DNA of 59,616 nucleotides, the filler included. It is 5 parts of 5 records of this genome, joined end to end, with 100 filler letters (N's around TTAATTAATTAA, not from the genome) between each part and the next. Parts side by side here need not be neighbours in the genome. Positions count along the whole stretch, not along the records: positions 1 to 30,623 come from SRR31156797_20689; 4 more parts are not named here. The stretch is one strand, 5' to 3'. Positions 2,982 through 27,193 of the stretch are shown here, piece by piece. The position numbers and the translations under genes are program-made. Position 1 is the first letter of the stretch. Every line of letters begins with the position of its first letter. Under the pieces are notes generated by a model. The model was not told where the DNA came from. It did not search any database and was given only the letters and a program-made list of their open reading frames with translations.

Positions 2982-2994
2982 GATGAATAATGTG

Positions 2995-3025
2995 GTTGGG
3001 CGATGTCGTTTGGACATCGCCCAAC
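2995..3025 (-). terminator. Stem-loop between micropeptide genes and the ankyrin gene
   Basis: GTTGGGCGATGTC-gtttg-GACATCGCCCAAC, a perfect 13-bp inverted repeat. Confidence 0.6.
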
Positions 3026-3031
3026 TTCTTT

Positions 3032-3169
3032 TTAATCCTCGTCGTCGAGGTAGCTGTCGTTGTTCGGATTGTGAGCGTCTGCCCATTCATCCATGTCATC
3101 TTCATTGTTGGGGTTATTGATATTGGAATAAAGGTCAAGTTCTTCCTGGGTCATATCCGAAGTATCCAT
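3032..3169 (-). CDS. 45-aa acidic micropeptide with two NPNN motifs (not in ORF track)
   Basis: Manual translation MDTSDMTQEELDLYSNINNPNNEDDMDEWADAHNPNNDSYLDDED*. AGGAG RBS upstream; alternative ATG at 3175. Confidence 0.7.
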   Translation of the reverse strand: MDTSDMTQEELDLYSNINNPNNEDDMDEWADAHNPNNDSYLDDED

Positions 3170-3585: not shown

Positions 3586-4173
3586 TTAATCTTCGTATAC
3601 GATCAAAGCGTTGGCAATCAAATCGCACATAGGCTGAGCGCTTTCGGTCACGCCTTCAATGCAAGCGTCCAGCCAGCCGTGTTTGAGCTTTTCCATGTCC
3701 ACTTCATATCCTGCGTTTTCTGCCAACATAGAGAGGAAGTAGCGGCCAGTACGCCCGTTTCCCTCCCTGAAAGGGTGAGCAAGATTGAGTTCCAGCATAT
3801 AATAGGCTGATCGATCTACAAATTCATCCGGGGAGCCGCCTTTGAGAAAGGATTCCTGAGTCAGTTCGGCTGTAAGGGCTGTGATGACGTTTGTGATGAA
3901 GCGTGGATTGCAAAAAAGAGTCTTCCCTTTGCTGATGGAGACAGTCCTCTCTTGTCCGGCCCAGCCATAGACATCTTGAAAAAGGTGGTGATGGATGGCT
4001 TTGATGTGTTGATAGTCGAAGTTGCCGTCTGGAGGGTCTTCAACCATGCGGTTGGCAATAGAAAGGCGCTCGAATTGATCAAGCGCCTCTTGAGTTTTGT
4101 GCCCAGCCTTGTTCTTCAAGACTGACGAATTTTCATATGTGTAAGCGTCTTTATGAGCGTATCGCGTAGTCAT
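3586..4173 (-). CDS. Fic-family AMP-transferase toxin (class I FicT)
   Basis: Canonical Fic motif HPFREGNGRTGR and the HHHLFQDVYGWAG motif. Confidence 0.93.
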   Translation of the reverse strand: MTTRYAHKDAYTYENSSVLKNKAGHKTQEALDQFERLSIANRMVEDPPDGNFDYQHIKAIHHHLFQDVYGWAGQERTVSISKGKTLFCNPRFITNVITALTAELTQESFLKGGSPDEFVDRSAYYMLELNLAHPFREGNGRTGRYFLSMLAENAGYEVDMEKLKHGWLDACIEGVTESAQPMCDLIANALIVYED

Positions 4174-10674: not shown

Positions 10675-11718
10675 CTAGCCCTCGAAAAAATTATGGATAG
10701 TCGCTTTGAGACTGGCGTTGCCCAGCGACTTCAGGCCGTCTGCAAAGTATTTGTTCCAGTTGGGACCTCGCTCCTTCAAGTCCCAATAAGCGTCCAGCAG
10801 GGAATTGGGATCATCTTCCATGAGCAACTCGATGAGGAGTTGCGCTTGGAGGAGGTCCTTACGTTTCTTGGCTGTTTCAATCGAAGATCGGCGCTGGGAA
10901 ACAATCAGTTTGTGCAAGGCGAACCTAGCTGGATGAGGGACATACGTCAGCGCCCCTCCGCCCACGAGCATGATCGTTTCAACCGGATTAACGGTCAGGA
11001 AATTCAGGAAGCGTTGTGGGAAGCCGTTACTTTTGAGTTTGTTTGACCAGACAGGGCCTCGCTCAGGGCCTGTGAAGGGCATGAGTACATCAACTCGGAT
11101 CTTGTCCTTGTTGATGTAGGAGGTCGGTGGGGTCGTTGGATCCATCCCAGGAATTTCGCTGAATGTCTCGTCGTATTTTTTCAGCGCTTCCAATAATGGC
11201 ATAGGCAAGTTCTCTTCAGCATTGGCAAGGTCGTCCTTGTCTGCTTGAGTTATGTCAACGTCCAAGGTGTAGCGGGCTGCCTGCCCGAATTTGGCTCCAA
11301 ACATCGCGCCATATGCCTGGAAGGCGACAGTCCCGACCAATATTGCTTTTGCCAAGACGCCAGCTTCGTGCAGTCCGAGAATGAGGTTTGCCAGTTTGCC
11401 GGTCGGGGTTGCTACACCAGAAGACTTCAATGTGCTGATGAGCTCCGCCCTGCTGGAATAGCCAGCCTTAGCGTCCTCAAATACCTGAATCCGCTGAGCC
11501 AATTCAGCATCGTTTTTGGGGCCAAGGTATTCCCGCTTGCGCGTTTTGCCAGGCGAAGTCCGTCTGCTTTTTTGGAAATACCAATGCTCCCGACCATCCA
11601 CCATTGCGGTCACAATGTTACCACTCAAAGGCCAGAGGTCCTTGTTCTGCGGCTCCGTTTTGCATTGGTCAACAAGCTCCGCGTAGAGGGTGTGCGTTAT
11701 GATTGGCAATCGTTTCAT
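10675..11718 (-). CDS. GSU2403-family nucleotidyltransferase-fold protein
   Basis: Motifs LVGTVAFQAY..TLDVDI, RVDVL, VPHPARFALHKLIVSQRR, KRKDLLQA. Start taken at MKRLP. Confidence 0.8.
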   Translation of the reverse strand: MKRLPIITHTLYAELVDQCKTEPQNKDLWPLSGNIVTAMVDGREHWYFQKSRRTSPGKTRKREYLGPKNDAELAQRIQVFEDAKAGYSSRAELISTLKSSGVATPTGKLANLILGLHEAGVLAKAILVGTVAFQAYGAMFGAKFGQAARYTLDVDITQADKDDLANAEENLPMPLLEALKKYDETFSEIPGMDPTTPPTSYINKDKIRVDVLMPFTGPERGPVWSNKLKSNGFPQRFLNFLTVNPVETIMLVGGGALTYVPHPARFALHKLIVSQRRSSIETAKKRKDLLQAQLLIELLMEDDPNSLLDAYWDLKERGPNWNKYFADGLKSLGNASLKATIHNFFEG

Positions 11719-11918
11719 GAGGCAACTATAAACCATTTTGAAAATGGAGTATAGACGGCTTGTCTTGCCCAATGCTGTCGAAGACTGTCGAATTCTCAAC
11801 AGGAGTGTTGAAGGGGAGTGAAGGCAAGCCAAGACTGGTGAGAACTATCAAGTCCTGACTCGAATTGCTCAAGGCGATCGGAGAATTGTACTAATCTGGA
11901 TCGTGTGATGCTCGAAAG

Positions 11919-12239
11919 TTAGATCATAACGGCTTTGATGATTCGATGAAGCTGCTGGAGCTTTTCTCCTTCGGCGGAATCGATCACGGCCTTGAGATTT
12001 GTTCGCAATCGCTCGTCGTTTGTTTTGTGGTCGAAGTCGAAAAGGTCTTTGAGTTCGACTTGAAGGCCGGTTGCGATGTTTTCAGCAAGCGATAAGGTGA
12101 CGTTAGCGCCTTCGCGTTCAACTTGGCTTATATACTTGGCTCCAACATTTGAGGATTCCCCCAGCTGTTCCTGGGTGAGTCCTTTTTGTTTTCTCAGTTC
12201 TCTAATCCGTAAGCCCAATAGTTTTGTCGAGTCAGCCAT
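11919..12239 (-). CDS. XRE-family HTH regulator (C-protein-like)
   Basis: LGLRIRELRKQKGLTQEQL..YISQVEREGANVTL. Start at MADSTK. Confidence 0.88.
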   Translation of the reverse strand: MADSTKLLGLRIRELRKQKGLTQEQLGESSNVGAKYISQVEREGANVTLSLAENIATGLQVELKDLFDFDHKTNDERLRTNLKAVIDSAEGEKLQQLHRIIKAVMI

Positions 12240-12448
12240 AATTACCGTCCTTTGGGGGCTAGTATGGCAATGTATTTTTCTAATAAAAACTTGTTGAATT
12301 AAGATTTTGGCCAAAAAAGTCCTGCTAAGATGTTACTTTTGCTTGACGAAGTCGTGTTGAAGTGGTTTTTAAGAGGAGAATGTAAAGCCACAGTGGGACA
12401 ACTGTTTATTTAAACAGAAAAGTCGATCGTCGGTTGCAGGAGAAAACC

Positions 12449-13285
12449 ATGAATTACGGATTCATTCCAAATGAAACAGTTCAATTCCTTCCGGTTCCTT
12501 CCGGAATCAGTCAAAGCGATGTCGACAGACTGCATAAAGAGTACAAGATCATAATCAACAAGCTGGAGAAAAAGCTTGCTCATGAGAAATCTCAAAGGCG
12601 TTTCTGGGAGGAGCATTCAACTACTTTTCAACGTGCATTGAGGGAGTTGACGATTAGGAGCAACACCTATCCCAAGGACGCACATCGGGCCTTGATCTGG
12701 AATAGGCTGCATGAAGACGGTGCGACCGATGAGCTTGTCAAAGCCTTGGATGGTGAGGATGGCCTGGCCTCAATTTCGATGGATAGTGAAGCCTATTTCG
12801 ATGCGGCAGATAAAATTATTGAGGAACTGGAATTCTTGCGAGCGACTTTCTACATGATGAGGGAGTTTCATGTTTCATGGAGGAGCATTTGTCTGAAATT
12901 CATTGCAGGCCATGGCCTCACGAAAAAGAACGTCTTTGACATCAATGACAAGCACAGGGCTGAATTAAAGCTGAACACCTTTGATTTCCGGGAAGAACAT
13001 AAACCCTTTGAGTTTGATGTGATGGAACGCGATTGTCAGGAGAGAATTGAAGACCTGCTGGACATGTGCACGGAAGCAGCTAATAGGTGCGAGGCGAGGA
13101 AAATCAAAGCGGTGGCAGTGAAAAAGACGTGTCGTCATTTAGCGAAGATGCTTGGATTGGATTTCGAATCGCTGGAAAGACGTCATGAGGTCAATATTAA
13201 GCAGGCTGTCGAAAATAGATTTTACACGAAATATCCGGTCAAAGAAGCAAGAGCATTCGTGGATAAGATCTTTGTAAGCATTTAG
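12449..13285 (+). CDS. Hypothetical alpha-helical/coiled-coil protein, divergent from the XRE gene
   Basis: AGGAG RBS before MNYG; helical, heptad-like composition. Confidence 0.65.
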   Translation: MNYGFIPNETVQFLPVPSGISQSDVDRLHKEYKIIINKLEKKLAHEKSQRRFWEEHSTTFQRALRELTIRSNTYPKDAHRALIWNRLHEDGATDELVKALDGEDGLASISMDSEAYFDAADKIIEELEFLRATFYMMREFHVSWRSICLKFIAGHGLTKKNVFDINDKHRAELKLNTFDFREEHKPFEFDVMERDCQERIEDLLDMCTEAANRCEARKIKAVAVKKTCRHLAKMLGLDFESLERRHEVNIKQAVENRFYTKYPVKEARAFVDKIFVSI

Positions 13286-13373: not shown

Positions 13374-13547
13374 TTGGCTTAGGGTGTCGTTTTGAATTTG
13401 TATCGCCTTTAGAGTTTTTGATCGGTTGAGGCACGCGAGTAGCTATTTGAAAAGAAAAGCGAAGTTTGGTGATTTTGCAAATTTTTGATCGGTTCACTGA
13501 TCGGATGTTCATGCACGTTTCAGATAGGCCCGGAAGAGGGCAGAAAG

Positions 13548-13605
13548 CGTTACTGGTGGAAAGACGTGTCTACCAGTAACGTGGGGAGTCGGTTTGAAAA
13601 GTGCC
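13548..13605 (+). repeat. Repeat X copy 2
   Basis: CGTTACTGGT-N14-ACCAGTAACG-TGGGGAGTCGGTTTGAAAAGTGCC. Confidence 0.8.
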
Positions 13606-13738
13606 ACAGGTAGTCATTTGGAGAGGATTTGATCCTCGAAGTGTTACCATGGTAATCAGGCCGATTTTTGCGAGATTGGCAATCCGTGTCGAATCAAATT
13701 GGATGGAGCTTTTTGCGGAGAATTTACGCAAAACACAA

Positions 13739-14836
13739 TCACCATCCTAAAGTTCGAGGGGCATCTTTTTCTAGCTCCTCATCGTCAAAGACAAGGTGCT
13801 CTGGCCAGGATATGGGATTGATTGCCTCAGCGTATCTGCGCGCCCAAGAGATATACTCATCCAAGCTAGGGGTGTCCTTAGCCTTAGCTTGAAGTTCGTC
13901 AAGAAAGGCGGATAGTCCTCTGGACAGCTTCCACTGCTTCACATGGCCGAGGACCTGTTCGCCTTTGTATTCATCTATTTCCTGTCGACGTTTTGCTTGT
14001 CGTCTGAGTTCCCACTGTCGCTCTCGTTCAACTCTTTCCAATTCTCGTCTATGGAGAAGGGGTGCCAGATGTTTCAGCGAAGTGACCACCGAAGATATGC
14101 AGTCTTCAATCCGTTGTATTTTGCCGTCGTTCCAAGAAGACCGGCCCCCATATGAATAGCTCCTCACAACGATCGAAAGCCTGCCTGTCGGGGTGAAGAT
14201 GAACCTGTCTTCCCAGAAGATATATTTCCCCTCCTCCCTTTCTTTCTTTGTTCGCTGAATTTTCTCATCAATGCCTATCTCGATCAGATACCCATCGATT
14301 TCGATTTGTGTTGCACGTGATTCATCTTCGTTTTTTAAGGATACAGGGATACCTTCATTCTCGAGTGTCTTGATCAGAGAGTCGAACACAAGGCAAGCGC
14401 GATCAATTTGAGTACGACTAACCTGAATATCAAGCTGCTGTTTGTTTTTAGAATGAACAACGCCTCGGTCATCTGATTTGCCTCTATGCAGCCCATTACG
14501 GGTAATTTTCACGAGTTTGTGAGGAGCATCTAAAGAGCCCGGGACTACTTCGACTGTTGGTGGTTCCTGTTTTGATATTGGCTGTTTTTGCTCTTGCTGG
14601 TGAAGGGTAATGCTGTTGACCCCTTTGGGAGTGAGTTTCAGGAGCTTGGGGTTTGACGGAACGTTCTTTCCTACACGTTTCTTAGCCCAATATCCACGCG
14701 GAGATTTGGGAATCTCCATTGTTTTGCGTCATTTTGCGATGGCTGCATCGGTTACGCCGAAATTTTTAGCGAGTTTGGTGGTTGGCTTTGACCAGATGAG
14801 TTCGAAGAGTTTTTGACGGGGGAGTGCGTGGGACAT
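13739..14836 (-). pseudogene. Island-associated HTH-containing hypothetical protein with a premature stop
   Basis: The frame continues upstream of the track ORF as MSHALPRQKLFELIWSKPTTKLAKNFGVTDAAIAK*RKTMEIPKSPRGYWAK. TGA at 14729-14731 splits the N-terminal HTH. Confidence 0.7.
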
Positions 14837-14943
14837 GGTGATGCCTTCGGATTATGCTTTGGTTTAGATGCAGCATGATGTGATTGAGAATTGGGGCCAG
14901 AAGTCTCACAGCAATCAAGTTGGATGATCGTAGGGCTACCGTT

Positions 14944-14988
14944 CTGTCATGCAGGAGGCCGCGAGTTCTAGTCTCGTCGCTGCCGCCA
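14944..14988 (+). pseudogene. Degenerate 3' fragment of tRNA-Asp(GTC); relic att site
   Basis: CTGTCAT (GTC anticodon loop)-GCAGG-AGGCC-GCGAG-TTCTAGT-CTCGT-CGCTGCC-GCCA. No 5' half upstream. Confidence 0.7.
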
Positions 14989-15097
14989 CTAAAAGAACTA
15001 GGACATTAATCATTTAGGTTGTGGCCTTTTCTTTTTGGTTAATCGTTAAACGATCTAGAAAAGCCTTTTGATTCAGTTTAAAGGACTTTCTTTGTTA

Positions 15098-17812
15098 CTA
15101 AGTTTGTATGTTTATTAGTGCATCGACTTTTCTTTCTTCAATAATGTGAATCCCTTCAAGAACTGTTTTCATGAAAGTGTATAATGGGGTTGAACTGTCG
15201 TATTGTATCGCTTTGTTGCTAGTTGAAGATTTGTAAATGAATGAGCTGCCTTCCTTTTTGTCGAAGACGAGGCAATCGACACAGTCCCGACTTGGTTTGA
15301 ATATTATAAATGGAGAAAGAGGGAGGGCCGTGTTGCTTTCAAGGTCTACCAGATATGATTCTTGTGGGTTTGCGTCGAACAAGCCTTCATATTCAAATCT
15401 GTTGTAAAAAGTCCTACTATCGTGCGCGCACCGAAATGTACCTTTGTAAGCACCGCTTGAAAAAGGTTTTTTTTGGACATCATCAAATTGCCCAAATATT
15501 TTTCCTTTTAACACCTTGTGAAGGATGTTTGTTATCACGATCAGATATTCATGGTGAGGAAAGTCTTCAGATGAAAGCTTGTCATGCTTATGGGCGTTGA
15601 AGTCGTCTATGGCTTTGTTTATTATATCTTCATTTTTTACAAGTTGCTCATGAAGTTTTTTGGTAAATAGCGCCTTTTTTTTGAGAGTTCTATTTGCTTG
15701 ATAAATCAAATGCTTTAATGGCCCCATAGACCGTTTAAATGATTCGCCGATGGTATTCGGTTTAAAACGATTGTTAAGTATCAATTCAGATGCTGACGTA
15801 TAGGCTAGCAGAGATAAAGCTTGCTCAAATACTTCTCTAGCGTTTTTTGCCGCTCGTTCAGAATCTGCTTCACTTAAGTATTGTTTGAGTGGGAGAGATA
15901 CAAGTATGGGTAGATGCTGGAGGAGGTCTTTAAGTTGCAACCATCCCGGGTCTTGGCTTCTCTTTGTTATGATCTGTATCTGTTCGTTCGTAATATAGCT
16001 TATCGATGAATTGCTGGTTCCAAAGTCAAATCCGATATAACGGTTAGAGTTTGTGTTTTGGTTTGCGGTTGTTACATCGAGCATAAATGGGGCGGCATTT
16101 ATAGTAGAGCCTTTTACTCCTGCATCTTCGTTACCTGATTTGTAGATAAATCGCGGATAGGCCGTACCATCTTTTTTGACAGTGATTTCGACTTTTATTT
16201 TTTTGTCAAAAGCGCTTTGCTTTGGCGTATAAACGATGTTGTCGATGTTGTATAAGCAGTTGTGTTGGTCTTTAATTTCAGAAATTTCGCAGTCAAACTG
16301 TTTTGTGAAGTAATAAGACAGGCTGTGTCGAGGGCCATGGTTAAGTCGGACTTTCCATTGAACAGGCGTGTCGATGAAATGTTGTAAATCCTGTGCGGAT
16401 GGTAATAGGTCGCCCTCTTTAGCTCTGGTCATGTCTATTGCGTTCTTAACAGAGGAAAAGCTACGCAGTTCGATTCCTTTTGTGTCAGGATCAAGCAATA
16501 ATTTCACAGGGTTATATGTGACTGATACAAACTCACTTTCTGAATCATAGTGTCGGCGGGCACATTCTATTGCAAGCCCCTTTGCGACTACTTCCTGAAA
16601 TGAATTGCTTATTGAAATTGGGATGGAGTTTGATAGATCCTTTTTAAAATCTTTATCAATAAGCTTACCAAGCCATCGGATATTCGACGAGCCTCCCGAG
16701 ATTAATGTGCGTGTGATTTTTTTTTCGTCAAGCTCTCCCTTGGCGCGACTCAATGCTTCCTTCACGACCATTTTGATTTTGGCATTCCATATGTCAGTGA
16801 TGAAAATCTTCTTAAATTCATGCCCATATATGTCGATAGAAGCCCATTGAGTGTCCGCATTAAATGGGTCTACAGGGATTGGGACGGTGACTTTTTCATA
16901 ACCCTCAGCGTCAAGAGCCCACTCAGTTATTTTGGATGATAATTCGATTTTTGACTGTTCAACGATATGTTCAAGTTTGTTATAGTTTCGCACAAAAGCT
17001 CGTTTGTCTTTAGCTAGGTCTTCAAGTTTGAGGCCATTCTTGTGCATTCTTTCAAGGGCTTTAAAAAACGTTTTTGCCTGTCGTGAGTCTTTGGGGCACT
17101 CTTCAAGAGATTTGAGTATTAGATATTTGCTAAGGGCAGAATTTACATAATAGCCTCCAACTGGGCAGGATGATGCCGCTAGTGGCTTAGAATGCTTTCC
17201 TTTTATACTTATGTCGCCTTTGTTCGTGGATTCAATTATTGAAACATCAAATGTTCCCCCGCCAAAATCGATGATAAGTGCTACTTGTTTTTCAGCTTCC
17301 TGCATAGCGGGATGTTTTAAGCCATACCTGTAGTATTGATAAACCGCGAAAGGCTCAGGAAGGAAATCTACGTCTTTATATGCATGCAAGATGTTACGGA
17401 TGTTTTTGCGATATTGCCTGATCCAATTGTTGTCTTCTGTGTAAAAAGAGAGAGGCTCTGAAATGATAACTTTGAGCCCTTCTTTTTCATGAAAGACAGT
17501 TGAGGCTGCTCCTTCCACATTTTTAAGAATGGCTTTGAAATAGTCATCTGTTAGTTCGTAGGCTGTCTTTTGTACCCCATCAATATTCGTTGGGTAATGT
17601 CTGTGGGTTGTGATTTTTTGCGGAGTGTATCTTCCGAGTTCTATTTTGAAGTTGGCATTTACAAAGTCCTCATTGCTGAGTCGCGAGATGGCGTTATGCC
17701 CCCAATCGTATTGGTGCTTTTTATTGTAACAGAGGACGGAAGGAATATATTCATGGCCGTCGATAGTGACCAGTTGTGTGCCTTCAACAAAAAAAGTTTT
17801 TTTTGAGTTCAT
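15098..17812 (-). CDS. Atypical Hsp70/actin-fold ATPase fusion (904 aa), apparently circularly permuted, with a HEPN-like C-terminal region
   Basis: IPSVL, LPEPFA, IIDFGGGTFDVS, ISGGSSNI and VVAKGLAI motifs. The phosphate-1 motif IGFDFGTSNS occurs at aa ~593-602 rather than at the N-terminus. Confidence 0.8.
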   Translation of the reverse strand: MNSKKTFFVEGTQLVTIDGHEYIPSVLCYNKKHQYDWGHNAISRLSNEDFVNANFKIELGRYTPQKITTHRHYPTNIDGVQKTAYELTDDYFKAILKNVEGAASTVFHEKEGLKVIISEPLSFYTEDNNWIRQYRKNIRNILHAYKDVDFLPEPFAVYQYYRYGLKHPAMQEAEKQVALIIDFGGGTFDVSIIESTNKGDISIKGKHSKPLAASSCPVGGYYVNSALSKYLILKSLEECPKDSRQAKTFFKALERMHKNGLKLEDLAKDKRAFVRNYNKLEHIVEQSKIELSSKITEWALDAEGYEKVTVPIPVDPFNADTQWASIDIYGHEFKKIFITDIWNAKIKMVVKEALSRAKGELDEKKITRTLISGGSSNIRWLGKLIDKDFKKDLSNSIPISISNSFQEVVAKGLAIECARRHYDSESEFVSVTYNPVKLLLDPDTKGIELRSFSSVKNAIDMTRAKEGDLLPSAQDLQHFIDTPVQWKVRLNHGPRHSLSYYFTKQFDCEISEIKDQHNCLYNIDNIVYTPKQSAFDKKIKVEITVKKDGTAYPRFIYKSGNEDAGVKGSTINAAPFMLDVTTANQNTNSNRYIGFDFGTSNSSISYITNEQIQIITKRSQDPGWLQLKDLLQHLPILVSLPLKQYLSEADSERAAKNAREVFEQALSLLAYTSASELILNNRFKPNTIGESFKRSMGPLKHLIYQANRTLKKKALFTKKLHEQLVKNEDIINKAIDDFNAHKHDKLSSEDFPHHEYLIVITNILHKVLKGKIFGQFDDVQKKPFSSGAYKGTFRCAHDSRTFYNRFEYEGLFDANPQESYLVDLESNTALPLSPFIIFKPSRDCVDCLVFDKKEGSSFIYKSSTSNKAIQYDSSTPLYTFMKTVLEGIHIIEERKVDALINIQT

Positions 17813-17938
17813 ACTTTCTTACCCTTTAAGGTCGGCTGTCGAGGACGTAACGGTCTTTATGTCGGACGTCTGCCCTCATAAATGATTGCCTGGAGCTGTT
17901 GTTTCTTTGATGAGTCTTGTAGGAATTTATATACTTGT

Positions 17939-18808
17939 TTAGCTGCTATTTCTAGTCGAAAGGATCCCCACGTTCGGTAGGGCTTGAAAATTTTTGTTGC
18001 TGAGGCACATACCTTTCATTTTTTTGACTATTTCGTTATATTGCATACCGTTTGATTTCATAAACAAATGAACAGCCTTGTGGCAGTTGGGGCATAGAAG
18101 AGCAAGGTCGGCGATTGAAACCGTATGCTTGTCAGAAAATGAAGAGATGGGCTTTTTATGATGGGCTTCAATGTAGTTAAATCCGTATAGCGTGTTGAAG
18201 TCTAGCCCGCATATTTCACATATCCAATCTTGCGAAGTTTTAATTGCTTCGATCACCCCCTTGCTTCTCTCGGCCATGAGGTGCGATACGTACTTGTGCT
18301 CCCCCTCTTGGAAGAGAAGTTCGTCTTGCGATGGGATTGATTGCTTTGCCGGATCCTGTATCTCAAGAACAACATATTCGTCTTCTATTGAGGTAACTGA
18401 AAACCTGCCTTCAAACTCCCAACCAGAAGGAGCCGCAGTGAACAGCAGGATCGGATACTCGTACTGGGGTTGTTTAATTAAAACCCGATTGGCTTTTTCT
18501 TTTAGGTTAATGCCACCTGCTCTAGCTTTGAAAGAGTATGTGAATGATGCTTTCGCATCATTAGTCCAGCCTTCAAATCCATAAATCCCTGATTTTGATT
18601 TAATTATAACAGCATCAATGTCAGGAAATATTCCGACCCAATTGATTCCTTGTTGGGGGGTGTTTCCAATGATGTTGTGTTCGCCCGACCAGTATCTAGA
18701 GTCGCGAACCTTAGAATATTGGATCAAGTCGTAAAGATTTCGCTTCGAAACGATGTCTCCAGCGGACAATTCAAAAAGATCATTTGTGGCACTGAGTTGT
18801 GTGTTCAT
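17939..18808 (-). CDS. HNH endonuclease with a putative SRA/PUA-like N-terminal domain (type IV-like)
   Basis: CEIC..IEAHHKKP..LLCPNCHKAVH. The N-terminal QQGINW..FTY..N..PILLF..WEFEGRF pattern resembles modified-base reader domains. Confidence 0.8.
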   Translation of the reverse strand: MNTQLSATNDLFELSAGDIVSKRNLYDLIQYSKVRDSRYWSGEHNIIGNTPQQGINWVGIFPDIDAVIIKSKSGIYGFEGWTNDAKASFTYSFKARAGGINLKEKANRVLIKQPQYEYPILLFTAAPSGWEFEGRFSVTSIEDEYVVLEIQDPAKQSIPSQDELLFQEGEHKYVSHLMAERSKGVIEAIKTSQDWICEICGLDFNTLYGFNYIEAHHKKPISSFSDKHTVSIADLALLCPNCHKAVHLFMKSNGMQYNEIVKKMKGMCLSNKNFQALPNVGILSTRNSS

Positions 18809-18999
18809 TGTAACAGGGGGTTGAGGTCTTCAGCATCCTTTTTCACTGCTTATGATTTTTCGATAGGCTAAAGCGTATATTCTGTGGTGGTTGCTTGTCG
18901 ATAATCTATACCAATTTGGTCAGATGGTTGAATTAATATTTGCTTATGTCTATATATATTTGATACGTGAAATAACTGTTTGTCAATAACTCAAATAAG

Positions 19000-20853
19000 T
19001 TGGAAGACATCATGCCGAACAGAATGAACCCTCATGTGCAGAGATTGCATAGATATTTACCATTCGATGCAAATCATGATCAAATATACGAGGAAAACCG
19101 AGATCCTAAAGATACGCTGGAACTCACGACTTCAGCACTTGTCTACCTTATGCGTGTCCTATCTGAAGACCCGAGTGTAATAATCCTGACAGGTGATGCC
19201 GGGCATGGAAAAACCCATCTATGTAGCAGGGTATTAAAAGACCATCTGAAGTATTCGAAAGAAGAAGCTCTGTGTATCTTAAACGATCGTTGTAGCGGAG
19301 AGCAGCTTCAGTCCGAAGAGTGTTCAAAGCCGGTCAGTATTTTTAAAGATTTTTCTGAGTTCTCGATACCCAATGCCCGTCAGAAGCTCTGTGAAGCAAT
19401 AAATGACGATGAGTCGGTTTCGATTATTTGCGTAAACGAGGGGCGGTTGAGGTCGATTTTGGCTGGAAGTTTGGATGACCACCAGCTCGATGAACTCAGA
19501 AGTGAGTTTAATGACTCATTTAAATCTGGAATGGCATCACACCATGGAAAGATACACATTATTAATTTGAACTACCAATCTGTAGCTTCCAGTGAAAATG
19601 CCTTGATTGATAGGGTTCTTAGTGGGGAGTCTCGTAGGGCTGGCTGGCTGGACGGCAGAAGCTGGGCTATCTGTGATCAGTGTGACAGTCGAGACAAGTG
19701 CCCGATTGTCTGCAACAGAGATCTGTTGGCGCAAGAAGGAAATGCTGCAGTCAGAGTCAGAAGGATTCGTGAGCTGTTTAGCATTGTTGAAAGGCTAGGA
19801 ACGGTTGTCACCATTCGTGAGATATTAATGACGATAGCTTATCTGATTACGGGGGGGCTAACCTGTGCTGATGTTCATAGACGAAATAGAGAGGGGTGGC
19901 AGCATGACTATACCTTCTATAGTCTCTTGTTTGCACCACCATCATCTTTGGGACGGGATAAGCTGGCACGAATCCCTGTCCTACAAGCTTTCAAAGGGCT
20001 TGATCCAGGGGTGCACGCGGATCGAATCATTGATGAGAGACTGATTAATGAAGGCGCTAGTTTTGAAGATTGTGGCTGTGAGCTGACTTTTAGTCGTAAA
20101 GTCGGCAATCAACCAATCAAGATTGATGCTAAGGGTGGGATCGATGAAATCGTCGGTAACCCTCGTAGCTTGAAAGAGAGGAAAGCGGAGGCTGACTTTA
20201 CCCTAACAGTTATACGAAATCTGAGGCGTCGTGATTTTTTCGAAGCTGTTTTCGATGATGGATTTGAGGCAAACAGGTTAGGGTTTAACAGTTACAAAGA
20301 TTTTTGGTGGCTTGTTTCTGGTGAAGAAAACATGAACAAGCGAGTTAAAATCAAAAACAAATTGATATCTGGTCTTCACGTGATGCAGGGATTGAGGCTC
20401 CCGGAATCAACGAATAAATTACATTTAGTAGACCCGGCCTTTGGGCGTTCAACCAACAATGCTGCCATTATTACTAAGAAAGTTCCTTCCAACAAGGTGA
20501 GACTGCTGAAGCAATCAGAAGGATGGGGGTTTTTGGATGAGCAAAAAGCAAATTCATTACCTGAAGTAGTCGACTGGATCGAGCGTGAAGTGTTGTTGTC
20601 GGTTAGTCTGAGTCCGATGGATACGTATCAATATCCGCTCAATCTTTTTATGTTTGATTGTATCATGAGGGCTTCGTCTGGGTACCTCCCGGAAACCTTC
20701 TATGCACACGACATTAGAAAAGTTAGCAATTTCTTGGGGCTATTGGCAGAATCAGGAAGGCCTGATGATGAATCCATTAGCATTGTCGTCGCTGGGAAAA
20801 TGCACAACGTTACCCTCGAGGAAGGGGACCAGATCGTCGTGAGTGGAGATTGA
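19000..20853 (+). CDS. P-loop ATPase, DndF/DptF-like
   Basis: Walker A LTGDAGHGKTH, ICVNEGRL, and a CxxC-x5-CP cysteine cluster. First gene of an overlapping triad. Start may be ATG 19012. Confidence 0.7.
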   Translation: MEDIMPNRMNPHVQRLHRYLPFDANHDQIYEENRDPKDTLELTTSALVYLMRVLSEDPSVIILTGDAGHGKTHLCSRVLKDHLKYSKEEALCILNDRCSGEQLQSEECSKPVSIFKDFSEFSIPNARQKLCEAINDDESVSIICVNEGRLRSILAGSLDDHQLDELRSEFNDSFKSGMASHHGKIHIINLNYQSVASSENALIDRVLSGESRRAGWLDGRSWAICDQCDSRDKCPIVCNRDLLAQEGNAAVRVRRIRELFSIVERLGTVVTIREILMTIAYLITGGLTCADVHRRNREGWQHDYTFYSLLFAPPSSLGRDKLARIPVLQAFKGLDPGVHADRIIDERLINEGASFEDCGCELTFSRKVGNQPIKIDAKGGIDEIVGNPRSLKERKAEADFTLTVIRNLRRRDFFEAVFDDGFEANRLGFNSYKDFWWLVSGEENMNKRVKIKNKLISGLHVMQGLRLPESTNKLHLVDPAFGRSTNNAAIITKKVPSNKVRLLKQSEGWGFLDEQKANSLPEVVDWIEREVLLSVSLSPMDTYQYPLNLFMFDCIMRASSGYLPETFYAHDIRKVSNFLGLLAESGRPDDESISIVVAGKMHNVTLEEGDQIVVSGD

Positions 20854-22139
20854 GATCTATGAAGACGCCAGAGATATCAAAAGTTATATTTGGGGGGATT
20901 CTAAACAGCGATGCAGCTGGGTTTTATCCAGGGCTGGAATTGTTTAATTACCTATTTGGCTCTGCTGAAGGCGAAATCTTACCCCAAGAAGAGTACCCCG
21001 TTTTTATTAGAAGATCTCAGGACTTTGCCCGGAGACTAGTTTGGGATCACGATCGGTTTTCAGACGATAAAGAAGGGGAGTCTGTTTTTATTGGCGAGTC
21101 CGCCGAACAAGCACTGAAGAACCTGTTGTCATGTCTTCAGTTACAGGTACCGAACAGAAGAACAAAAAATTGGGAAGCTGCTCACTTTTTTCCCTATACC
21201 CGATCACTAATTCATTGGGACGCAAGAAGACGTCACAACAATCTGTTGATTGAACGAAGGTACTTTCGCGGTGGAGGCGCTATGGCGCACAAGGTATTAA
21301 GAAAGGACCTAGATTTAGAGCGGCTAGAGAGTATTAGAAAGGGATTTTCTGTCTTGCTTCCTGAAGACTCCTCAGCGCCTTTAGAGCGGCTAGCAAATGT
21401 ATTAGGAAATAAATCAATAGAGCCGGTAATCAGCAAAGATGAGAAAATTGAAGGCGGGGTGCCTGTCGATGATACGGATGGTTTAAATGACCTTTATCGT
21501 AATGGTGTAAGAAACATCCTCTCCCATACCGATCTCTCAACAACTTCACGAGTTAAGTCGATTGTTTCGTGGACGGGATTTTGGCTGCTGTTGTGTCAGC
21601 ATAGAAGGGCAACTCACTATCTTGAGGAAGCTGAACTTAACATTCTTATTGATTGCGGCAACGGGCCAAGCCAGTTGAGACGGGCTTCCAGCAGGAATCT
21701 CAAGGACGTATTGTCTGTTGTCTCAAGGTCTGCTCTTCGCTGTACTGAGGAAAATGATGCCCCAGAACCTTCTGCGAAGGATATTAGGCAACTCACTGGT
21801 TTCTTCACAGGCACAAGCGCTTGGATAGGTTTGTTAAACGCATTTTCTGGAAAACGACACTTTGCAGTTAAGCTTGATCTTTTGGAAACACTCGTTCTTG
21901 CCACCACTGGACCAAACGAAGAGGTGGAGTTTGAGTCTTTCATTGACGATGTCATATTTGAACAGTTTGGCTTGATTATTGGACGAGCCGCTGCGTCGAG
22001 AGCCTCGCTTTTGCATAGGCTAGACGCCAGTATTTTTGAAGACAACGAAGAAAGTTTTGCTAATCAGCTCTCTGCTGCTGGTTTGATGCATGACTACTCT
22101 GATGCAACAAGAATGATTAGTGCAAGGGCAATAAAATGA
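20850..22139 (+). CDS. DndG/DptG-like hypothetical protein
   Basis: 429 aa, middle gene of the triad. C-terminal LSAAGLMHDYSDA resembles the winged-helix end I recall for DptG. Overlaps both neighbours by 4 nt. Confidence 0.55.
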   Translation: MRSMKTPEISKVIFGGILNSDAAGFYPGLELFNYLFGSAEGEILPQEEYPVFIRRSQDFARRLVWDHDRFSDDKEGESVFIGESAEQALKNLLSCLQLQVPNRRTKNWEAAHFFPYTRSLIHWDARRRHNNLLIERRYFRGGGAMAHKVLRKDLDLERLESIRKGFSVLLPEDSSAPLERLANVLGNKSIEPVISKDEKIEGGVPVDDTDGLNDLYRNGVRNILSHTDLSTTSRVKSIVSWTGFWLLLCQHRRATHYLEEAELNILIDCGNGPSQLRRASSRNLKDVLSVVSRSALRCTEENDAPEPSAKDIRQLTGFFTGTSAWIGLLNAFSGKRHFAVKLDLLETLVLATTGPNEEVEFESFIDDVIFEQFGLIIGRAAASRASLLHRLDASIFEDNEESFANQLSAAGLMHDYSDATRMISARAIK

Positions 22140-25100
22140 TCGATGCAATAATATCCTCTCTCGCATATGAAACCGTTAAATATATCATTAATGATTCTAT
22201 ATCCGAGGAAAACGATTCAGGTAAGCCCGCAGTCCGTTTAAAGAACTTACAGGCCATGGAGGTCGAGCGTTTTATAAAAGAGTGGGAGTTCCGGTCGGTA
22301 AATGACTCTCTCGAGGATGTTAATGTTGTGATTGGCAGAGATCCTGAGTTGGATATCCCTGAGAAGTATCTTGCTGATAATGACCTTTCCATTACTTATT
22401 ATCGGAATAACAACCCCAATGGTCTCCTGTATATCCAAACAAGGGTTGAGTCGGATGAGCAAGGGCTTGAATCTATGTTCACCATTCAAGATAGAAACTT
22501 CATGGATGGAAGCCTTAATTCTGAATCATTTCATGCTGAGGGGGTATTGATCGATCATGCATGGTCATTGGTTGCTAGAGACAGAAACTTGCCAATTGGA
22601 TTGCAAGAAAAATTGTTGGATGTAAAACATATCCTTCAAACAAAAGATGCTCCTCTGCCAATTCGACTCTTTGCCGCATTTGCCTACTCTGCCTCTGAAC
22701 ATCTAGTTTCAAGCGGAGGGCAGGCTTTCGATGATGAATCAATATCTGAGGCCGTAGGTCTAGCGCTATCGTCTTTAGGGTATTTCCCAGATAAGAACTG
22801 GGAATGCAAGGGGAACAAAGCAAGAAGGCTTGTGTCTAACTTTCGTTTCTCGGATTTAATGAATGCATCCGGTGTGGACCAAGAACCTGAAACATTAAGA
22901 CAAAGTATAGAAGGATTTCATTTTAGGGATGAAGATGAACATCCCCTAGATGATTCTGAGAATGTGCGCATAAGAGAGTTGTGTGTAAAATTTGTGATGG
23001 AGAGGGCGGAGTCGAATCGGGAGCAAATTCCTTATGATTATTACTCTCAGTTGTTCACCAAGTCTTTGGCGGGACTTTTGCTTGGAGAAAGGGTTGAAGC
23101 AGAAATAGGCGAGGCTGACAGCTCTAGAACCGATGAATTTGTTCGTTTGGATATAACTGCAGGGTTGAATAACAAAGAGCAGGATGCAGCTCGAGCTTTT
23201 ATAGAAGAAGAAGGTGTTGAAGAAGAGGGCGTAAATTTATGTGAGCTAATAAAGCCCGGCACACTTAAGATTCTCAAAAAGATTGCGTACCCTCGCGCAA
23301 AAGCGTTTTCAAATCCTTTTATTCAGCTTGTGGAAGTCATTCGCGACTGTACAAACCCAGATTATCTTCCGGGAGCAAAGCTCGTTGTACGGTTAGGGCG
23401 AGGGCATGAGAAAAGTTTGCCTTCTATCGGTCTGTTTGCTTTTTTGTATGGTCCTACCTTGCAGGAGATCGCGGACAGCTCTAATGACGATACTATGGGG
23501 ATTCAGCTCGAAGTCGACCCTCGACTTATCACAGTGAATTCCCCTCCTGATTTGACCTCGAGTTCAGATGATGGTGATGGCGAAATACCTGAACCTATTA
23601 CTTGGGAAAAAATTCCTTTAGAGTTTTCATTTGAAAGACTTGATGGCGGAGCTTGGCGGGCGTTCGATGAGTTCGTAAATTTGTGCTGGAAACCGGATGA
23701 TATCGAGTCTCTTGCATTCGCTTGGTTGATGACCGCAGCCGATGATGCCCCCACCCTTTTGGCGTCCTTGGAATATAGCGGGAAGTTGTTTTCCTCATTA
23801 ATTGCTGAAGGAGTGCAGCGTGTAATTTCGCTTGATTCACTAGTCACATCTTCTGATCTCGATATAGCTGTTGCCGAGTATCCCATTTTGCTCGATTTGG
23901 ATACACTCCGAAAGACTTTTAATAGCACAGCTAGCTCCTCGGGGCTCCAGATAGACTCAATGGGTGAGTATGCTTCCCGCTGGGGGGTGAAATTAAATGA
24001 TGCGAGACTCGAGTATATACCAAGTGGTTCTTTAGACAGACGGTTAAAAGCTTTTCTTTCTGTAGGTATTATTCATAATTTTGAGCATTCTAGAGCTATT
24101 ATGCTTATGACCCATCCAGTCAGACTGCGGTGGTTGGCAACTTACTACGAAGAGTTGCGAGCGTTGGTTTTGAGCGCATTAGGTTTATCTTTATATTTAA
24201 ATGAAGAGAATGAAAGCTATTACCTTGAACATTTGGAGGCGTTGTCTCCACACGGGCAACCGCCTTTGGTAGCCAACAGCCATCGTACATTACTCGTACC
24301 GGTTTCAGAGCATGGATACTCGGAAACTTTTGCAGCGATAAAGAGCGAAGGGACCGCGACCGGGGTTTGGAAGTCAGAAGTGGACGAAGCTTCTTTAAAA
24401 GTAATCTCAAAAGAAGTGATCACTTACTTGGAGTCCCATCCGCATAAAGCTGACGGTCTGAGTCTCCTTTTTGTCCTCCCTTTTGGCGGGGTTTTCCCTC
24501 AGAGTTTGTTGAAACAAGTAAGGAAGGGGGAGTGGAAGTCTATTTCGGTGCAGTGCCATGTCTTAGCCCCCAAAGAGCAATGGGAGTCGCTCGTCACTTC
24601 GTTTCAGGCACTAGAGACAGAAAGTCGTATAGCGAATGGAGCTCGGTATAATTCTCCTATACAATTAATGCTTTATGAGTGGGCTAGGGAGGAGGACGTA
24701 GATAAACATGTTGAGGGACAGTCTTTTGATTTGGCTTTAGTTCCGAACTTTTTTGGAGATAGGGTTGATGTCGATGAATATGCCGACTCCCCCAATGACA
24801 CCCAAGCCCATTTTGATGTCTTGTATGACCACCCTAGCTATATTGATCGGGATTCTGACTCTGGTTCAGTCTCAATCGTGTTGAAGCCGGAGCTGGCCGA
24901 TGATGTGTTCGAAGATTGGTCAACGGTGAATGTGAGATTGCTACGTTCAGAAGCTATTGCTCCTAGTTCACCAGAGTATGTTGATTTTACTAAGTTGAGG
25001 GTCCGCTTTGAAGAAGCTGCTGGCTTATTTGACTCTCTCCATAAGTGCTCTCATTGGGTTGTTACGCTGGATCACTATGTTGGAAGGAAACAGATAGAAA

Positions 25101-27193
25101 GCCTTCCTCAAAAGCCTGATGTGCTGACTGTACGGGAGGGCGTTGGGCAAAATGGTTTATACACTTTGGTCGTTTCCTCAAACGCCGGAAGACAGTTTGT
25201 GATAAATCGGCTTACAAGGAAACTCGAGAAATTCAATGATGTTTTGCCTGAGCTGGATAACAAAGCGTTGGCCCAAAACGTCTATGACGAAATAAGAAAT
25301 ATCGCACCGAGTTTGATTTTGAAATCAATGGGCGTGTCTAGAGTCACTGAGGAGGTATTGGGGTTGATGGTAGCTAAAAGGGCTACTGATGGACTGATAA
25401 AGTGCCTTGGAAGCGATCATGTTTCTATCTGGATTTCATTGGATGAGAATGCAGAGTGGTTTGGTGGGATCCGTGGCGTGCGGGCTGACTTGTGCCGTTT
25501 TGATTTTTACCGACAGGAAGAGAAGCTCCAAGTTGGTATTGTAGTCGTTGAAGGGAAATTGCGCCAAGCATACGATTCGCACGGTGTAGAGCAGGTTTCC
25601 CGAACTATGCTGTTACTTTCAAAAGCTCTAGTGGCAAAGGAAGGCGAGTATTCTCATGACGCAAGACTTTGGAGGCAGTCCATATTGAACGCCTTTGATA
25701 GTGTCGGCAATGACGCTATTAAGTTTGTAGAAAATTCTAATTCCCTTGAAGGAGAATCTTTCCGCTTGCCTGTACAAGATAGGGAGGATTTCCGGTCAGG
25801 AAACTATGAAGTTCGCTATTTAGAGGGTGTGTACTCTCTTTGCCAATATGTGAACTGCAGCACTGCTACCTCCGAAAAGCAAGACGATGTGAGGGTTTTG
25901 GTTTCTCCAGCAAGCGACATAATATCTCTAATCACGGAATCGCAAAGAGAAGAGATTGTTGTAGAGGCGGGGGGAGAGATGGGCGATGGTGTCTCCAACG
26001 CGGATGAAAATGGTTCTGATACAAATGAAGGCGCCAACGACGAGGTTGCTGAGTCGCAAATAACTGCGACACCAGTGGAGATACCATCTCCGGTTGAGCT
26101 TGAAGTTGTTTCAGAGGGCCAAGGAGCTGGGATAGCTAAACTTCAAAGGATGTATCAAACTGTTCTTGATACATTTAGCGAGTTTAAGATTCAGGTACGG
26201 GTCCCGCATGATGATGGTCAGAATTTTGTTGAGGGCCCTGCTTTTGTGCGTTTTAGAGTGCAGCCTGGTCATGGTGTTGAGCCCAAAAGGATCAGCGAAA
26301 AGGAAGAAGCATTAAGACTGAAGCTTGGGTTGGATGCTGACAAACGTATTCGGTTTGAAATTGGCGGTGGGGCTGTCAATATCGACGTACCTAAAGAAGA
26401 TGCAGATAGATACTATGTTGATGCCGAACAGATGTGGGAACAATGGGATGAAGCTGATACGGAAAAGTTGATTGTGCCTCTCGGAGAGAATCAGCAAGGT
26501 GAGATCATTAGTGTCGATCTTTCTTCAGCCAACTCCCCCCATCTCTTGATAGGCGGGGCAACAGGCAGCGGTAAATCTGAAGCACTAAACACGATACTTC
26601 GTGGCATGCTTAAGTATTATAACGAGACAGAGTTGCGATTGGTGTTGATAGATCCTAAGCAGACCGAACTGGCTTCATTTGAAGATGTCCCACATTTGTT
26701 GGGTGATATTGGTTACTTCGAAGAAGATGCTGTTGAGTGCTTAGAAGATGCTGTAGGTGAGATGCAGAAGCGATATACTGCGTTTAAAGCCATTCGTGCT
26801 CGTTCTTTGCCTGATTACAACTCTAAAGTTGACGCTACTGATCGAATTCCGTGGATCGTGATTGTCTTGGACGAGTATGCGGATTTGGTTTCAGATCCGG
26901 ATGCACGCAAAGCAATTGAAGGGCGCGTGAGACGACTTTCGCAGAAGGCTAGAGCGTGTGGTATCCATATTATCATTGCAACCCAGAAGCCTAGTGCAGA
27001 AAATCTAAGCACCACAATTCGTTCTAACCTTCCTGCCCAACTTGCCTTGAAATGCCGAGGCGCAACTGAAAGTCGGATTATTATGGATGAATCTGGAGCG
27101 GAGGCATTGAATGGTAAAGGAGACGCCTTTTTTAGGACAGCTCGAGGTATAGAAAGGATCCAGTGCGCTCTTTATGCCGAAAGCTGCGACTAA
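22136..27193 (+). CDS. 1685-aa DndH/DptH-like protein with a PD-(D/E)xK-like nuclease motif and a C-terminal FtsK/SpoIIIE-type ATPase
   Basis: RADL..VVEGK at aa ~1116-1141; PHLLIGGATGSGKS, LIDPKQ, IVLDEYAD, ATQKP and LNGKGD. No obvious N-terminal transmembrane segments. Confidence 0.8.
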   Translation: MIDAIISSLAYETVKYIINDSISEENDSGKPAVRLKNLQAMEVERFIKEWEFRSVNDSLEDVNVVIGRDPELDIPEKYLADNDLSITYYRNNNPNGLLYIQTRVESDEQGLESMFTIQDRNFMDGSLNSESFHAEGVLIDHAWSLVARDRNLPIGLQEKLLDVKHILQTKDAPLPIRLFAAFAYSASEHLVSSGGQAFDDESISEAVGLALSSLGYFPDKNWECKGNKARRLVSNFRFSDLMNASGVDQEPETLRQSIEGFHFRDEDEHPLDDSENVRIRELCVKFVMERAESNREQIPYDYYSQLFTKSLAGLLLGERVEAEIGEADSSRTDEFVRLDITAGLNNKEQDAARAFIEEEGVEEEGVNLCELIKPGTLKILKKIAYPRAKAFSNPFIQLVEVIRDCTNPDYLPGAKLVVRLGRGHEKSLPSIGLFAFLYGPTLQEIADSSNDDTMGIQLEVDPRLITVNSPPDLTSSSDDGDGEIPEPITWEKIPLEFSFERLDGGAWRAFDEFVNLCWKPDDIESLAFAWLMTAADDAPTLLASLEYSGKLFSSLIAEGVQRVISLDSLVTSSDLDIAVAEYPILLDLDTLRKTFNSTASSSGLQIDSMGEYASRWGVKLNDARLEYIPSGSLDRRLKAFLSVGIIHNFEHSRAIMLMTHPVRLRWLATYYEELRALVLSALGLSLYLNEENESYYLEHLEALSPHGQPPLVANSHRTLLVPVSEHGYSETFAAIKSEGTATGVWKSEVDEASLKVISKEVITYLESHPHKADGLSLLFVLPFGGVFPQSLLKQVRKGEWKSISVQCHVLAPKEQWESLVTSFQALETESRIANGARYNSPIQLMLYEWAREEDVDKHVEGQSFDLALVPNFFGDRVDVDEYADSPNDTQAHFDVLYDHPSYIDRDSDSGSVSIVLKPELADDVFEDWSTVNVRLLRSEAIAPSSPEYVDFTKLRVRFEEAAGLFDSLHKCSHWVVTLDHYVGRKQIESLPQKPDVLTVREGVGQNGLYTLVVSSNAGRQFVINRLTRKLEKFNDVLPELDNKALAQNVYDEIRNIAPSLILKSMGVSRVTEEVLGLMVAKRATDGLIKCLGSDHVSIWISLDENAEWFGGIRGVRADLCRFDFYRQEEKLQVGIVVVEGKLRQAYDSHGVEQVSRTMLLLSKALVAKEGEYSHDARLWRQSILNAFDSVGNDAIKFVENSNSLEGESFRLPVQDREDFRSGNYEVRYLEGVYSLCQYVNCSTATSEKQDDVRVLVSPASDIISLITESQREEIVVEAGGEMGDGVSNADENGSDTNEGANDEVAESQITATPVEIPSPVELEVVSEGQGAGIAKLQRMYQTVLDTFSEFKIQVRVPHDDGQNFVEGPAFVRFRVQPGHGVEPKRISEKEEALRLKLGLDADKRIRFEIGGGAVNIDVPKEDADRYYVDAEQMWEQWDEADTEKLIVPLGENQQGEIISVDLSSANSPHLLIGGATGSGKSEALNTILRGMLKYYNETELRLVLIDPKQTELASFEDVPHLLGDIGYFEEDAVECLEDAVGEMQKRYTAFKAIRARSLPDYNSKVDATDRIPWIVIVLDEYADLVSDPDARKAIEGRVRRLSQKARACGIHIIIATQKPSAENLSTTIRSNLPAQLALKCRGATESRIIMDESGAEALNGKGDAFFRTARGIERIQCALYAESCD

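Follow-up and report, generated by a model that had tools for sequence, protein, structure and literature searches.

Hsp70 proteins couple ATP binding and hydrolysis to a substrate-binding domain (SBD) through a linker; a helical lid comes after the beta part of that domain (SBD-beta), and the phosphate-1 hairpin, which is needed for ATP binding, sits at the extreme N-terminus. The gene described here lies at 15098..17812 on the minus strand of a 59,616-nucleotide stretch of DNA (the window, five parts of five records joined with filler, positions 1 to 30,623 coming from SRR31156797_20689) and encodes a 904-residue Hsp70-like protein in which the hairpin stands after the SBD-beta. Among described systems, CnuD and CnuCD of the CoCoNuT type III McrBC-like systems carry a divergent Hsp70-like nucleotide-binding domain (NBD) and SBD followed by a helical domain; in the part of the source at hand, CnuD works with CnuB and CnuC, has degenerate 'Walker A-like' motifs with probably little ATPase activity, and is linked to HEPN RNases (PMC11090510). 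The EACC1-protease modules, as far as the excerpted preprint describes them, contain a fused lidless DnaK-like domain that is 50% identical to DnaK and is proposed to act as a sensor (PMC12642450). Hsp70 genes of GTPase-centred conflict systems are, in the available portion of their description, ordinary Hsp70s in multi-gene loci (PMC7159879). For HEPN proteins, the consulted sections of a review place the catalytic histidine where helix 3 ends, and report that some HEPN families keep the histidine without the arginine (PMC3710099).

The 904-residue protein differs from each of its closest counterparts. Canonical Hsp70s (DnaK, BiP, Hsc70) have the phosphate-1 hairpin N-terminally rather than after the SBD-beta, and compared with them the protein has no recognisable helical lid, a 296-residue family-specific tail and a sparse, island-borne distribution. 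With CnuD it shares an Hsp70-like NBD and SBD, a helical domain and a defence context, but CnuD needs McrBC-like partners and has degenerate motifs, whereas in the 904-residue family all catalytic residues are invariant; the portion of PMC11090510 on which this comparison by description draws mentions no permutation. The EACC1 modules likewise place a lidless Hsp70-type domain, a proposed sensor, in one chain with a death-effector module, but the excerpt does not call that domain permuted, and the effector is a protease plus pore-former rather than a HEPN-like or Fic domain. HEPN toxins (HepT, RnlA/LsoA, Csm6, the AbiA HEPN and HI0074/AF0298-type proteins, as covered by the consulted sections of PMC3710099) differ in that the tail studied here has neither the Rx4-6H motif nor a sequence or profile match to them, and has extra helices and a fused beta domain. 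Within the literature covered, mostly at abstract level and supplements aside, no permuted Hsp70, Hsp70-Fic fusion or Hsp70-HEPN-like fusion was described. The protein presents a conserved and unusual architecture, apparently new among members of the Hsp70 superfamily, and is a candidate for a conflict system made of one gene. Our main reading, to which we give a probability of roughly 55%, is that of a rare stand-alone permuted-Hsp70 protein acting as an ATP-driven switch with an effector tail, a conflict system contained in a single gene.

The gene and its parts, in amino acids (aa) of the translated protein, are as follows.

15098..17812, minus strand: whole gene, 904 aa plus stop, a stand-alone permuted Hsp70-like protein (defined from the list of open reading frames (ORFs), the translation and the homologues)
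16538..17812, minus strand: aa 1-425, Hsp70-type NBD without strands beta1-beta2 and the phosphate-1 loop
16070..16537, minus strand: aa 426-581, conserved linker (EFVxVTYNP), then a beta-sandwich like the Hsp70 SBD-beta
16043..16069, minus strand: aa 582-590, variable loop from the SBD-beta-like domain to the hairpin, poorly conserved and with indels (predicted local distance difference test, pLDDT, 76 for the block 581-590)
15989..16042, minus strand: aa 591-608, the beta1-loop-beta2 hairpin in its transposed place, bearing the phosphate-1 motif D596-F-G598-T599-S600
15500..15988, minus strand: aa 609-771, helical domain with a probable HEPN-like bundle (about 632-770)
15101..15499, minus strand: aa 772-904, beta-rich C-terminal domain (D851 in 151/157 homologues, C847 in 116/157)

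An in-frame TAA stands 9 nt upstream of the ATG, so an upstream extension of the ORF is impossible, and no DxGT-type peptide was found in any frame of the 126-nt spacer to the preceding gene. Across the six frames of window positions 14701-18900 the internal copy was the sole match to D.G[ST][STAC], which means that the missing hairpin has no separate small ORF of its own. A sequence-only reading made earlier had the protein starting where Hsp70 is already some 20 to 30 residues in, with the hallmark first motif internal and the remaining ATPase motifs in their usual order, and all of this was borne out: the protein begins at about DnaK residue 20 with no N-terminal DxGT, IDGHEYIPSVL occupies aa 17-27, IGFDFGTSNSSISY is found at aa 593-606, and NFKIELG (54-60), LPEPFAV (151-157), DFGGGTFD (182-189) and SGGSSN (372-377) follow in normal order. 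Further along the chain, RSMGPLK spans aa 694-700, and FNAHKH spans aa 738-743.

The permuted architecture is that of a real, conserved family and not of a truncated gene, as judged from aligned sequences. A word-indexed search returned 307 homologues, nearly all of 897-950 aa with 35-60% identity and 92-100% query cover, from Pseudomonas, Marinobacter, Halopseudomonas, Stutzerimonas, Motiliproteus, Geobacter and many metagenomes; in their source databases they go under 'hypothetical protein' or under 'Hsp70 family protein'. An exhaustive search of 1.84 billion cluster representatives (50% identity clusters) gave 401 matches with E<=1e-3, of which 126 reached E<=1e-30. The alignment used throughout holds 157 of 259 proteins, those of 850-1000 aa, the remainder being fragments or members of a Fic-bearing sister family. 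Not one of these 157 full-length homologues has D.G[ST][ST] within its first 40 residues, and the suspicion that this copy had merely lost a motif which its relatives keep can be set aside. D596 and G598 are present in 157/157, with T (130) or S (27) in column 599, and K56, E153, D182, G184, G186, D189, G373 and G374 are each found in 157/157, with G185 (155/157) and T187 (156/157) near-invariant. The catalytic lysine and glutamate, K56 and E153, we take to be the equivalents of DnaK K70 and E171, from the hhalign alignment and the DnaK residue numbering. Three proteins of 965-1000 aa (P0143, P0154, P0160) are longer by 60-100 residues, and their match to the family is broken into three stretches; with the hairpin motif at about residues 646-689, they carry an insertion ahead of the hairpin.

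The family is thinly spread. Among 400 sampled genomes of the class a member was found only in the centre genome, Dechloromonas G001, which holds locus L001, and in none of the 399 others; there was no match among 50,697 phage records and there were three among 72,556 plasmid records, on conjugative plasmids in Bradyrhizobium. When genome contigs were searched with generic patterns, 75 of the 78 loci recovered were ordinary DnaK or other Hsp70-like genes, the others being L001 (a full-length member), L002 (a partial one) and L003 (the sister family).

By profile score and by fold the protein belongs to the Hsp70 family. PF00012 scored 50.7 bits (cut-off 20.6), with a match confined to aa 163-418, and NCBIfam DnaK/HscA scores fell far under their cut-offs (39 bits vs 648). 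An AlphaFold2 model of the full-length protein (115 sequences) had a mean pLDDT of 88.3 and a predicted template modelling score (pTM) of 0.87, and its Foldseek matches were full-length chains of DnaK, BiP, Hsc70 and Hsp110 (best E 9e-17). VIA-align placed model residue 6 opposite residue 20-21 in the DnaK rows and model residues 6-10 opposite residues 20-26 in the human and bovine Hsp70 rows, and in none of 50 rows was the first Hsp70 hairpin covered by the model's N-terminus. At the other end the alignments run on to model residues 575-581, opposite DnaK 502-505 or BiP 524-530, which identifies what the sequence-only reading had called a beta-rich region as the Hsp70 SBD-beta. The linker-like stretch EFVxVTYNP that precedes it has F428, T432, Y433 and N434 invariant. 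An actin-like NBD fold followed by an SBD-beta sandwich is therefore present, as are the catalytic Lys and Glu and the phosphate-2 and adenosine motifs; the canonical order of the phosphate-1 motif is not.

In the model, DSSP assigns the hairpin two strands, 591-596 and 601-608 (pLDDT 92 and 91). Searched alone against Pfam, aa 586-625 matched a single family, HSP70, at profile positions 2-27 (E 0.019, 13.7 bits, under the family cut-off), and the N-terminal 26 residues alone matched nothing. Against a canonical Hsp70 profile built from 48 DnaK ORFs of the fetched loci, with DLGTT at residue 8, hhalign aligned the family best over 18-417, opposite DnaK 31-372 (probability 98.7%, E 1.5e-16), and second over 591-618, opposite DnaK 3-30 (probability 29%, P 5.8e-4). 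The two pieces are complementary and so indicate a circular permutation of the NBD with the linker and SBD-beta at the new junction. A predicted complex of aa 1-585 with aa 586-625 gave 0.82 in three runs, but one control with an unrelated 44-residue protein gave 0.69, so that the score counts neither for nor against the hairpin's insertion.

The comparison with the Fic-bearing sister family (about 1020-1100 aa; proteins P0238, P0249, P0251, P0257, P0258 and P0260-P0264, and loci L003, L104, L127, L134, L139 and L153) shows where the permuted module ends. The sister-family ORFs located are these.

L003, 7968-11093: sister-family ORF
L104, 9557-12664: sister-family ORF
L127, 482-3616: sister-family ORF
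L139, 1708-4878: sister-family ORF
L153, 1406-4516: sister-family ORF

Both families have an NBD without the N-terminal motif, an SBD-beta and an internal DFGTS hairpin, which in the sister proteins lies at about residue 550; they differ in the tail, which in the sister family is a Fic domain unrelated to the tail of the 904-residue protein. Pfam Fic (Fic/DOC) was found in 10/10 sister proteins scanned (E 4e-16 to 4e-21), HPFx[DE]GNGR in 11/12, and PF00012 together with PF02661 in 6/6 database matches. Aligned with hhalign, the two families match over 527 columns (21-608 to 12-573, probability 100%, E 7e-73), with no alignment past residue 608, the last residue of the hairpin. Because the shared module ends at the hairpin, the hairpin goes with the Hsp70 module when tails are swapped, and this boundary is the strongest comparative evidence, taken from the alignments, that the hairpin belongs to the ATPase; Fic and HEPN-like tails on one module in turn show the module to be portable and the tails exchangeable. 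The neighbourhoods of the sister family are variable and include integrases, transposases, a DSP-phosphatase and a Macro-domain protein.

Circular permutation of an Hsp70, as first proposed from the sequence, is thus well supported short of coordinates by the absence of an N-terminal motif in all 157 homologues, by the complementary profile alignments and by the module boundary, and we hold it very probable that the permuted ATPase is real and functional. Homology, the invariance of the catalytic residues and ATP site, the module boundary and a model that forms one confident body together lead us to infer that the hairpin packs into lobe IA, where it would complete the ATP site.

The tail (aa 609-904) was modelled from a 148-sequence alignment with pLDDT 94.0 and pTM 0.92. 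It is made of helices up to aa ~768 and then forms a beta-rich domain; the earlier description of the last ~290 residues as helical is accordingly right up to aa ~770 and wrong for aa 772-904, which are beta-rich in both models. The helices come after the hairpin, and the Hsp70 lid is absent from the 50 best VIA-wide rows for the tail. In a VIA search of 48,161 chains, independent of Foldseek, with the helical part (tail residues 1-163), the matches included 1wwp (8.8), an AMPylated HEPN toxin (8.3), HI0074 (8.2), AF0298 'HEPN domain protein' (7.9), Csm6 (7.8), SO_3166 (7.3), TT1696 and ST0689 (both 7.2), AbiA (7.0) and LsoA (5.9), and the best 15 VIA-wide rows for the tail were mostly HEPN-fold proteins. 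On the model, the helical tail probably has a HEPN-like fold. Conservation falls on E663 (156/157), R694 (146/157), K742 (153/157) and H743 (157/157), the last standing at the end of helix 728-742, where the loop to the next helix starts; this helix would correspond to HEPN helix 3. At positions -4 to -6 from H743 the family has N/T, F/L and D/x, with no conserved Arg and a consensus of [FL]-x-x-x-K-H, so the alignment points to a conserved polar site made of E663, R694, K742 and H743 and to the absence of a canonical HEPN active site. The degenerate HEPN domain seen by the sequence-only reading consequently survives at the level of fold, through the VIA matches, and not at that of the motif, there being no RxxxxH and position -5 being F/L. 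A phmmer search of the tail against the PDB found nothing, and in the protein atlas the whole tail reached a best score of 0.82, with unnamed clusters. RNase activity of the tail is in our view doubtful.

The gene lies in a lower-GC part of the window (GC 0.41-0.50 up to about 30 kb, 0.55-0.62 beyond), which holds or adjoins the following features.

699-3086, minus strand: 795-aa ankyrin-repeat protein, low-GC region
3586-4173, minus strand: small stand-alone Fic/DOC protein, 195 aa (E 3e-18), low-GC region
10675-11832, minus strand: PF12281 nucleotidyltransferase (NTP_transf_8; E 3e-45)
11919-12314, minus strand: helix-turn-helix/Xre-type regulator adjoining the NTP_transf_8 gene
12434-13285, plus strand: 283-aa ORF with no Pfam or PADLOC family
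13739-14719, minus strand: 326-aa ORF downstream of the Hsp70-like gene, with no Pfam or PADLOC family
17939-18808, minus strand: 289-aa protein with a C-terminal HNH domain (Pfam E 6e-8; ZorE-type HNH E 1.4e-6), 126 nt upstream of the Hsp70-like gene
19000-27193, plus strand: SspF/SspG/SspH-like genes (PADLOC E 6e-49, 8e-21, 9e-87)
27221-28798, minus strand: C5 cytosine DNA methylase
29484-30539, minus strand: tyrosine integrase

Near 30 kb the GC climbs from ~0.45 to 0.55-0.62, a step that suggests that an integrated island ends there; no tRNA gene marking an integration site was found in the window. A promoter and terminator scan of 13500-19100 gave counts close to the shuffle expectation and hence no basis for proposing an operon. 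Elsewhere in the window, dnaA, dnaN and gyrB stand in a row at 49168-54226 on the plus strand and mark this as the chromosomal origin region, and the stretch directly after them (54000-58000) has a GC of 0.30, far under that of the rest; at 39703-42203, on the minus strand, a radical SAM/SPASM protein lies beside a class I methyltransferase, a possible peptide-modification pair.

Gene neighbourhoods were compared over 46 loci with a full-length member, drawn from 120 metagenome-contig stretches (pattern scan) together with L001, L079 and the window. All-vs-all clustering of up to four genes per side gave no neighbour cluster in more than 2 of the 46 loci, and the two-locus clusters that were checked (L117/L102, L093/L088) show the same layout in both loci, as if one contig had been sampled twice. 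A family scan took in 97 neighbouring proteins, each 140 aa or longer and no more than three genes away from the family member, and excluded the window, L079 and the likely repeats L102, L088, L156 and L141 (of L117, L093, L081 and L126). The families recognised included an ABC-3C system (L158), BrxL (L126), DNA methylases with ResIII, DUF5131 or Vsr/HATPase_c_3 (L148, L155, L103), PD-(D/E)xK and UvrD (L159, L114), PLD (L083), DUF1156 and NOV_C (L140), a WYL regulator (L114, L105) and many transposases and integrases; restriction, BREX, ABC-3C and transposon genes are thus frequent neighbours. McrB and McrC families were absent at E<=1e-5 among the 97 neighbouring proteins and the window neighbours scanned. 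In Dechloromonas hankyongensis (L001, 843-7487 and 7986-10703) the member adjoins TnsA, a Mu-type transposase, TniB and TniQ, and appears to be cargo of a Tn7-like transposon. The gene is rare, autonomous and mobile; its family occurs mostly in mobile and defence regions of bacterial genomes, and many members, though not all, adjoin defence genes. The 'defence cassette' of the sequence-only reading must therefore be recast: the location in a defence island stands, and the cassette gives way to an autonomous gene with no conserved neighbour across the 46 loci. Taken whole, that earlier interpretation keeps its permutation, keeps HEPN at the level of fold and loses the cassette.

A number of results weigh against a single-gene conflict system driven by a permuted ATPase. 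For the hairpin, the second hhalign match has a probability of only 29%, and the Pfam match of the isolated segment is below cut-off. Co-variation was rejected as evidence, having no power at an effective number of sequences (Neff) of 128-153: a first run of mean-field direct coupling analysis (DCA) on 157 sequences was dominated by gap artefacts, a second ranked the hairpin pairs 422-591, 421-606 and 422-592 at 5, 22 and 23, and in a third, on the whole protein with 193 sequences and a reduced alphabet, those pairs failed to reappear and the top 200 were scattered across all domain pairs (37 within the NBD, 32 between helical tail and NBD, 31 between beta tail and NBD), which we read as noise. 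For the tail, no conserved Rx4-6H was found in the alignment; Pfam gave no tail family for the whole protein or the tail, and 0/41 tails scanned singly matched any HEPN family at E<=1; the best match of the tail profile to PDB sequences was a nanobody (E 0.043); hhalign against 24 PF05168 HEPN domains, the only HEPN family compared by profile, returned a probability of 0.1%; and Foldseek had no match at E<=0.001 (best 7e-3 in the PDB, 6e-2 among BFVD viral models). At several loci the gene lies beside housekeeping genes (such as SecA/TilS, polyprenyl synthase and exonuclease VII). PADLOC-DB 2.0.0 has no model for the protein, the best match being PDC-M61B over 85 residues of the phosphate-2 region (E 0.0011, 15.7 bits), and the literature covered held no defence, toxicity or ATPase experiment on any member.

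Retention of the NBD, linker and SBD-beta-like domain with all catalytic residues would also suit a specialised chaperone that remodels a client, for instance that of a mobile element, with the tail serving as an enlarged lid, an oligomerisation domain or a client adaptor and being neither an enzyme nor a toxin. Such a chaperone would account for a tail with no recognisable catalytic motif or family and for the housekeeping neighbours at some loci, and in Hsp70 a helical lid does follow the SBD-beta. We nevertheless consider it unlikely, since the 50 best VIA-wide tail rows contain many HEPN proteins and no Hsp70 lid, since the conservation of H743, K742 and E663, all invariant or nearly so, and of R694 (146/157) suggests a site and not a scaffold, and since the sister family has an intact Fic enzyme at the same position and members are few, widely scattered and tied to mobile elements. 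The weak matches of the isolated hairpin (E 0.019; probability 29%) leave some room for an N-terminal pseudo-ATPase, deficient in nucleotide binding, whose hairpin does not complete the site, aa 591-608 then being the remnant of a second, decayed Hsp70 domain that has become structurally part of the tail. This is quite improbable: D596/G598 and T/S599 are retained in 157/157 despite the variable loop beside them, the rest of the ATP site is equally invariant, the hairpin is kept by the Hsp70 module upon tail exchange, and the model is one confident body (pTM 0.87, hairpin pLDDT 91-92).

The HNH endonuclease gene at 17939-18808 raises the further question of a two-gene system resembling ATPase-plus-HNH defence pairs, given its shared strand, the 126-nt gap, the ZorE-type resemblance (E 1.4e-6) and an HNH_2 gene two genes away from the member in L091; the HNH protein of the window, however, shares a cluster with none of the neighbours at the other loci that hold a full-length member, and neighbour clusters recur in at most 2/46 loci, those checked being likely contig repeats, so that such a pair is highly improbable. 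An N-terminally truncated or mis-started ordinary Hsp70 paralogue, finally, would explain the missing N-terminal motif and nothing else, and we give it next to no weight, with a stop 9 nt upstream, the hairpin encoded upstream in no frame, and the same start and N-terminal consensus in 157 homologues from many genera.

The permuted-Hsp70 switch that we prefer would work as follows. The hairpin would fold back into the centre of lobe IA and close the ATP site, so that the chain would leave the active site straight into the tail, and the module would form an ATP-driven, ligand-gated switch. The cue bound by its SBD-beta-like domain may be a peptide or a protein, plausibly some polypeptide present during infection; the bound ligand would alter the nucleotide cycle, and the resulting state would be relayed through the hairpin to the tail. 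The output would be the HEPN-like bundle, with its invariant Lys-His at the end of the third core helix, together with the beta domain, acting as a toxic or regulatory effector and possibly as a non-canonical RNase. The whole protein would then serve against phage or in abortive infection, as a system that mobile and defence islands carry, and a role in conflict or defence is, in our judgement, slightly favoured.

More tentatively, and as a possibility that we rate well below the switch itself, natural circular permutation may have made Hsp70 a portable immune switch, with the hairpin bridging the substrate-binding domain and an exchangeable toxin. The hairpin might then serve as a gamma-phosphate sensor, a phage-derived polypeptide and the ATP cycle might directly license the toxin, and activation could even proceed by hairpin exchange between protomers. 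If this were true, the family would constitute a chaperone-derived class of single-chain sensor-effectors, parallel to sensors of the STAND/NLR type. BiP, an Hsp70, is AMPylated in animals by the Fic enzyme FICD, and a bacterial Hsp70-Fic fusion would, if true, echo that pair.

Hsp70 is among the most thoroughly studied molecular machines, and the order of its motifs has been treated as fixed; the relocated hairpin would offer a natural experiment on the coupling between nucleotide state and the substrate-binding domain. That one module can bear either a Fic or a HEPN-like tail points to a form of toxin-domain gating that has gone unrecognised, and the family as a whole is a candidate new single-gene defence family, as yet unnamed by PADLOC, Pfam and NCBIfam.

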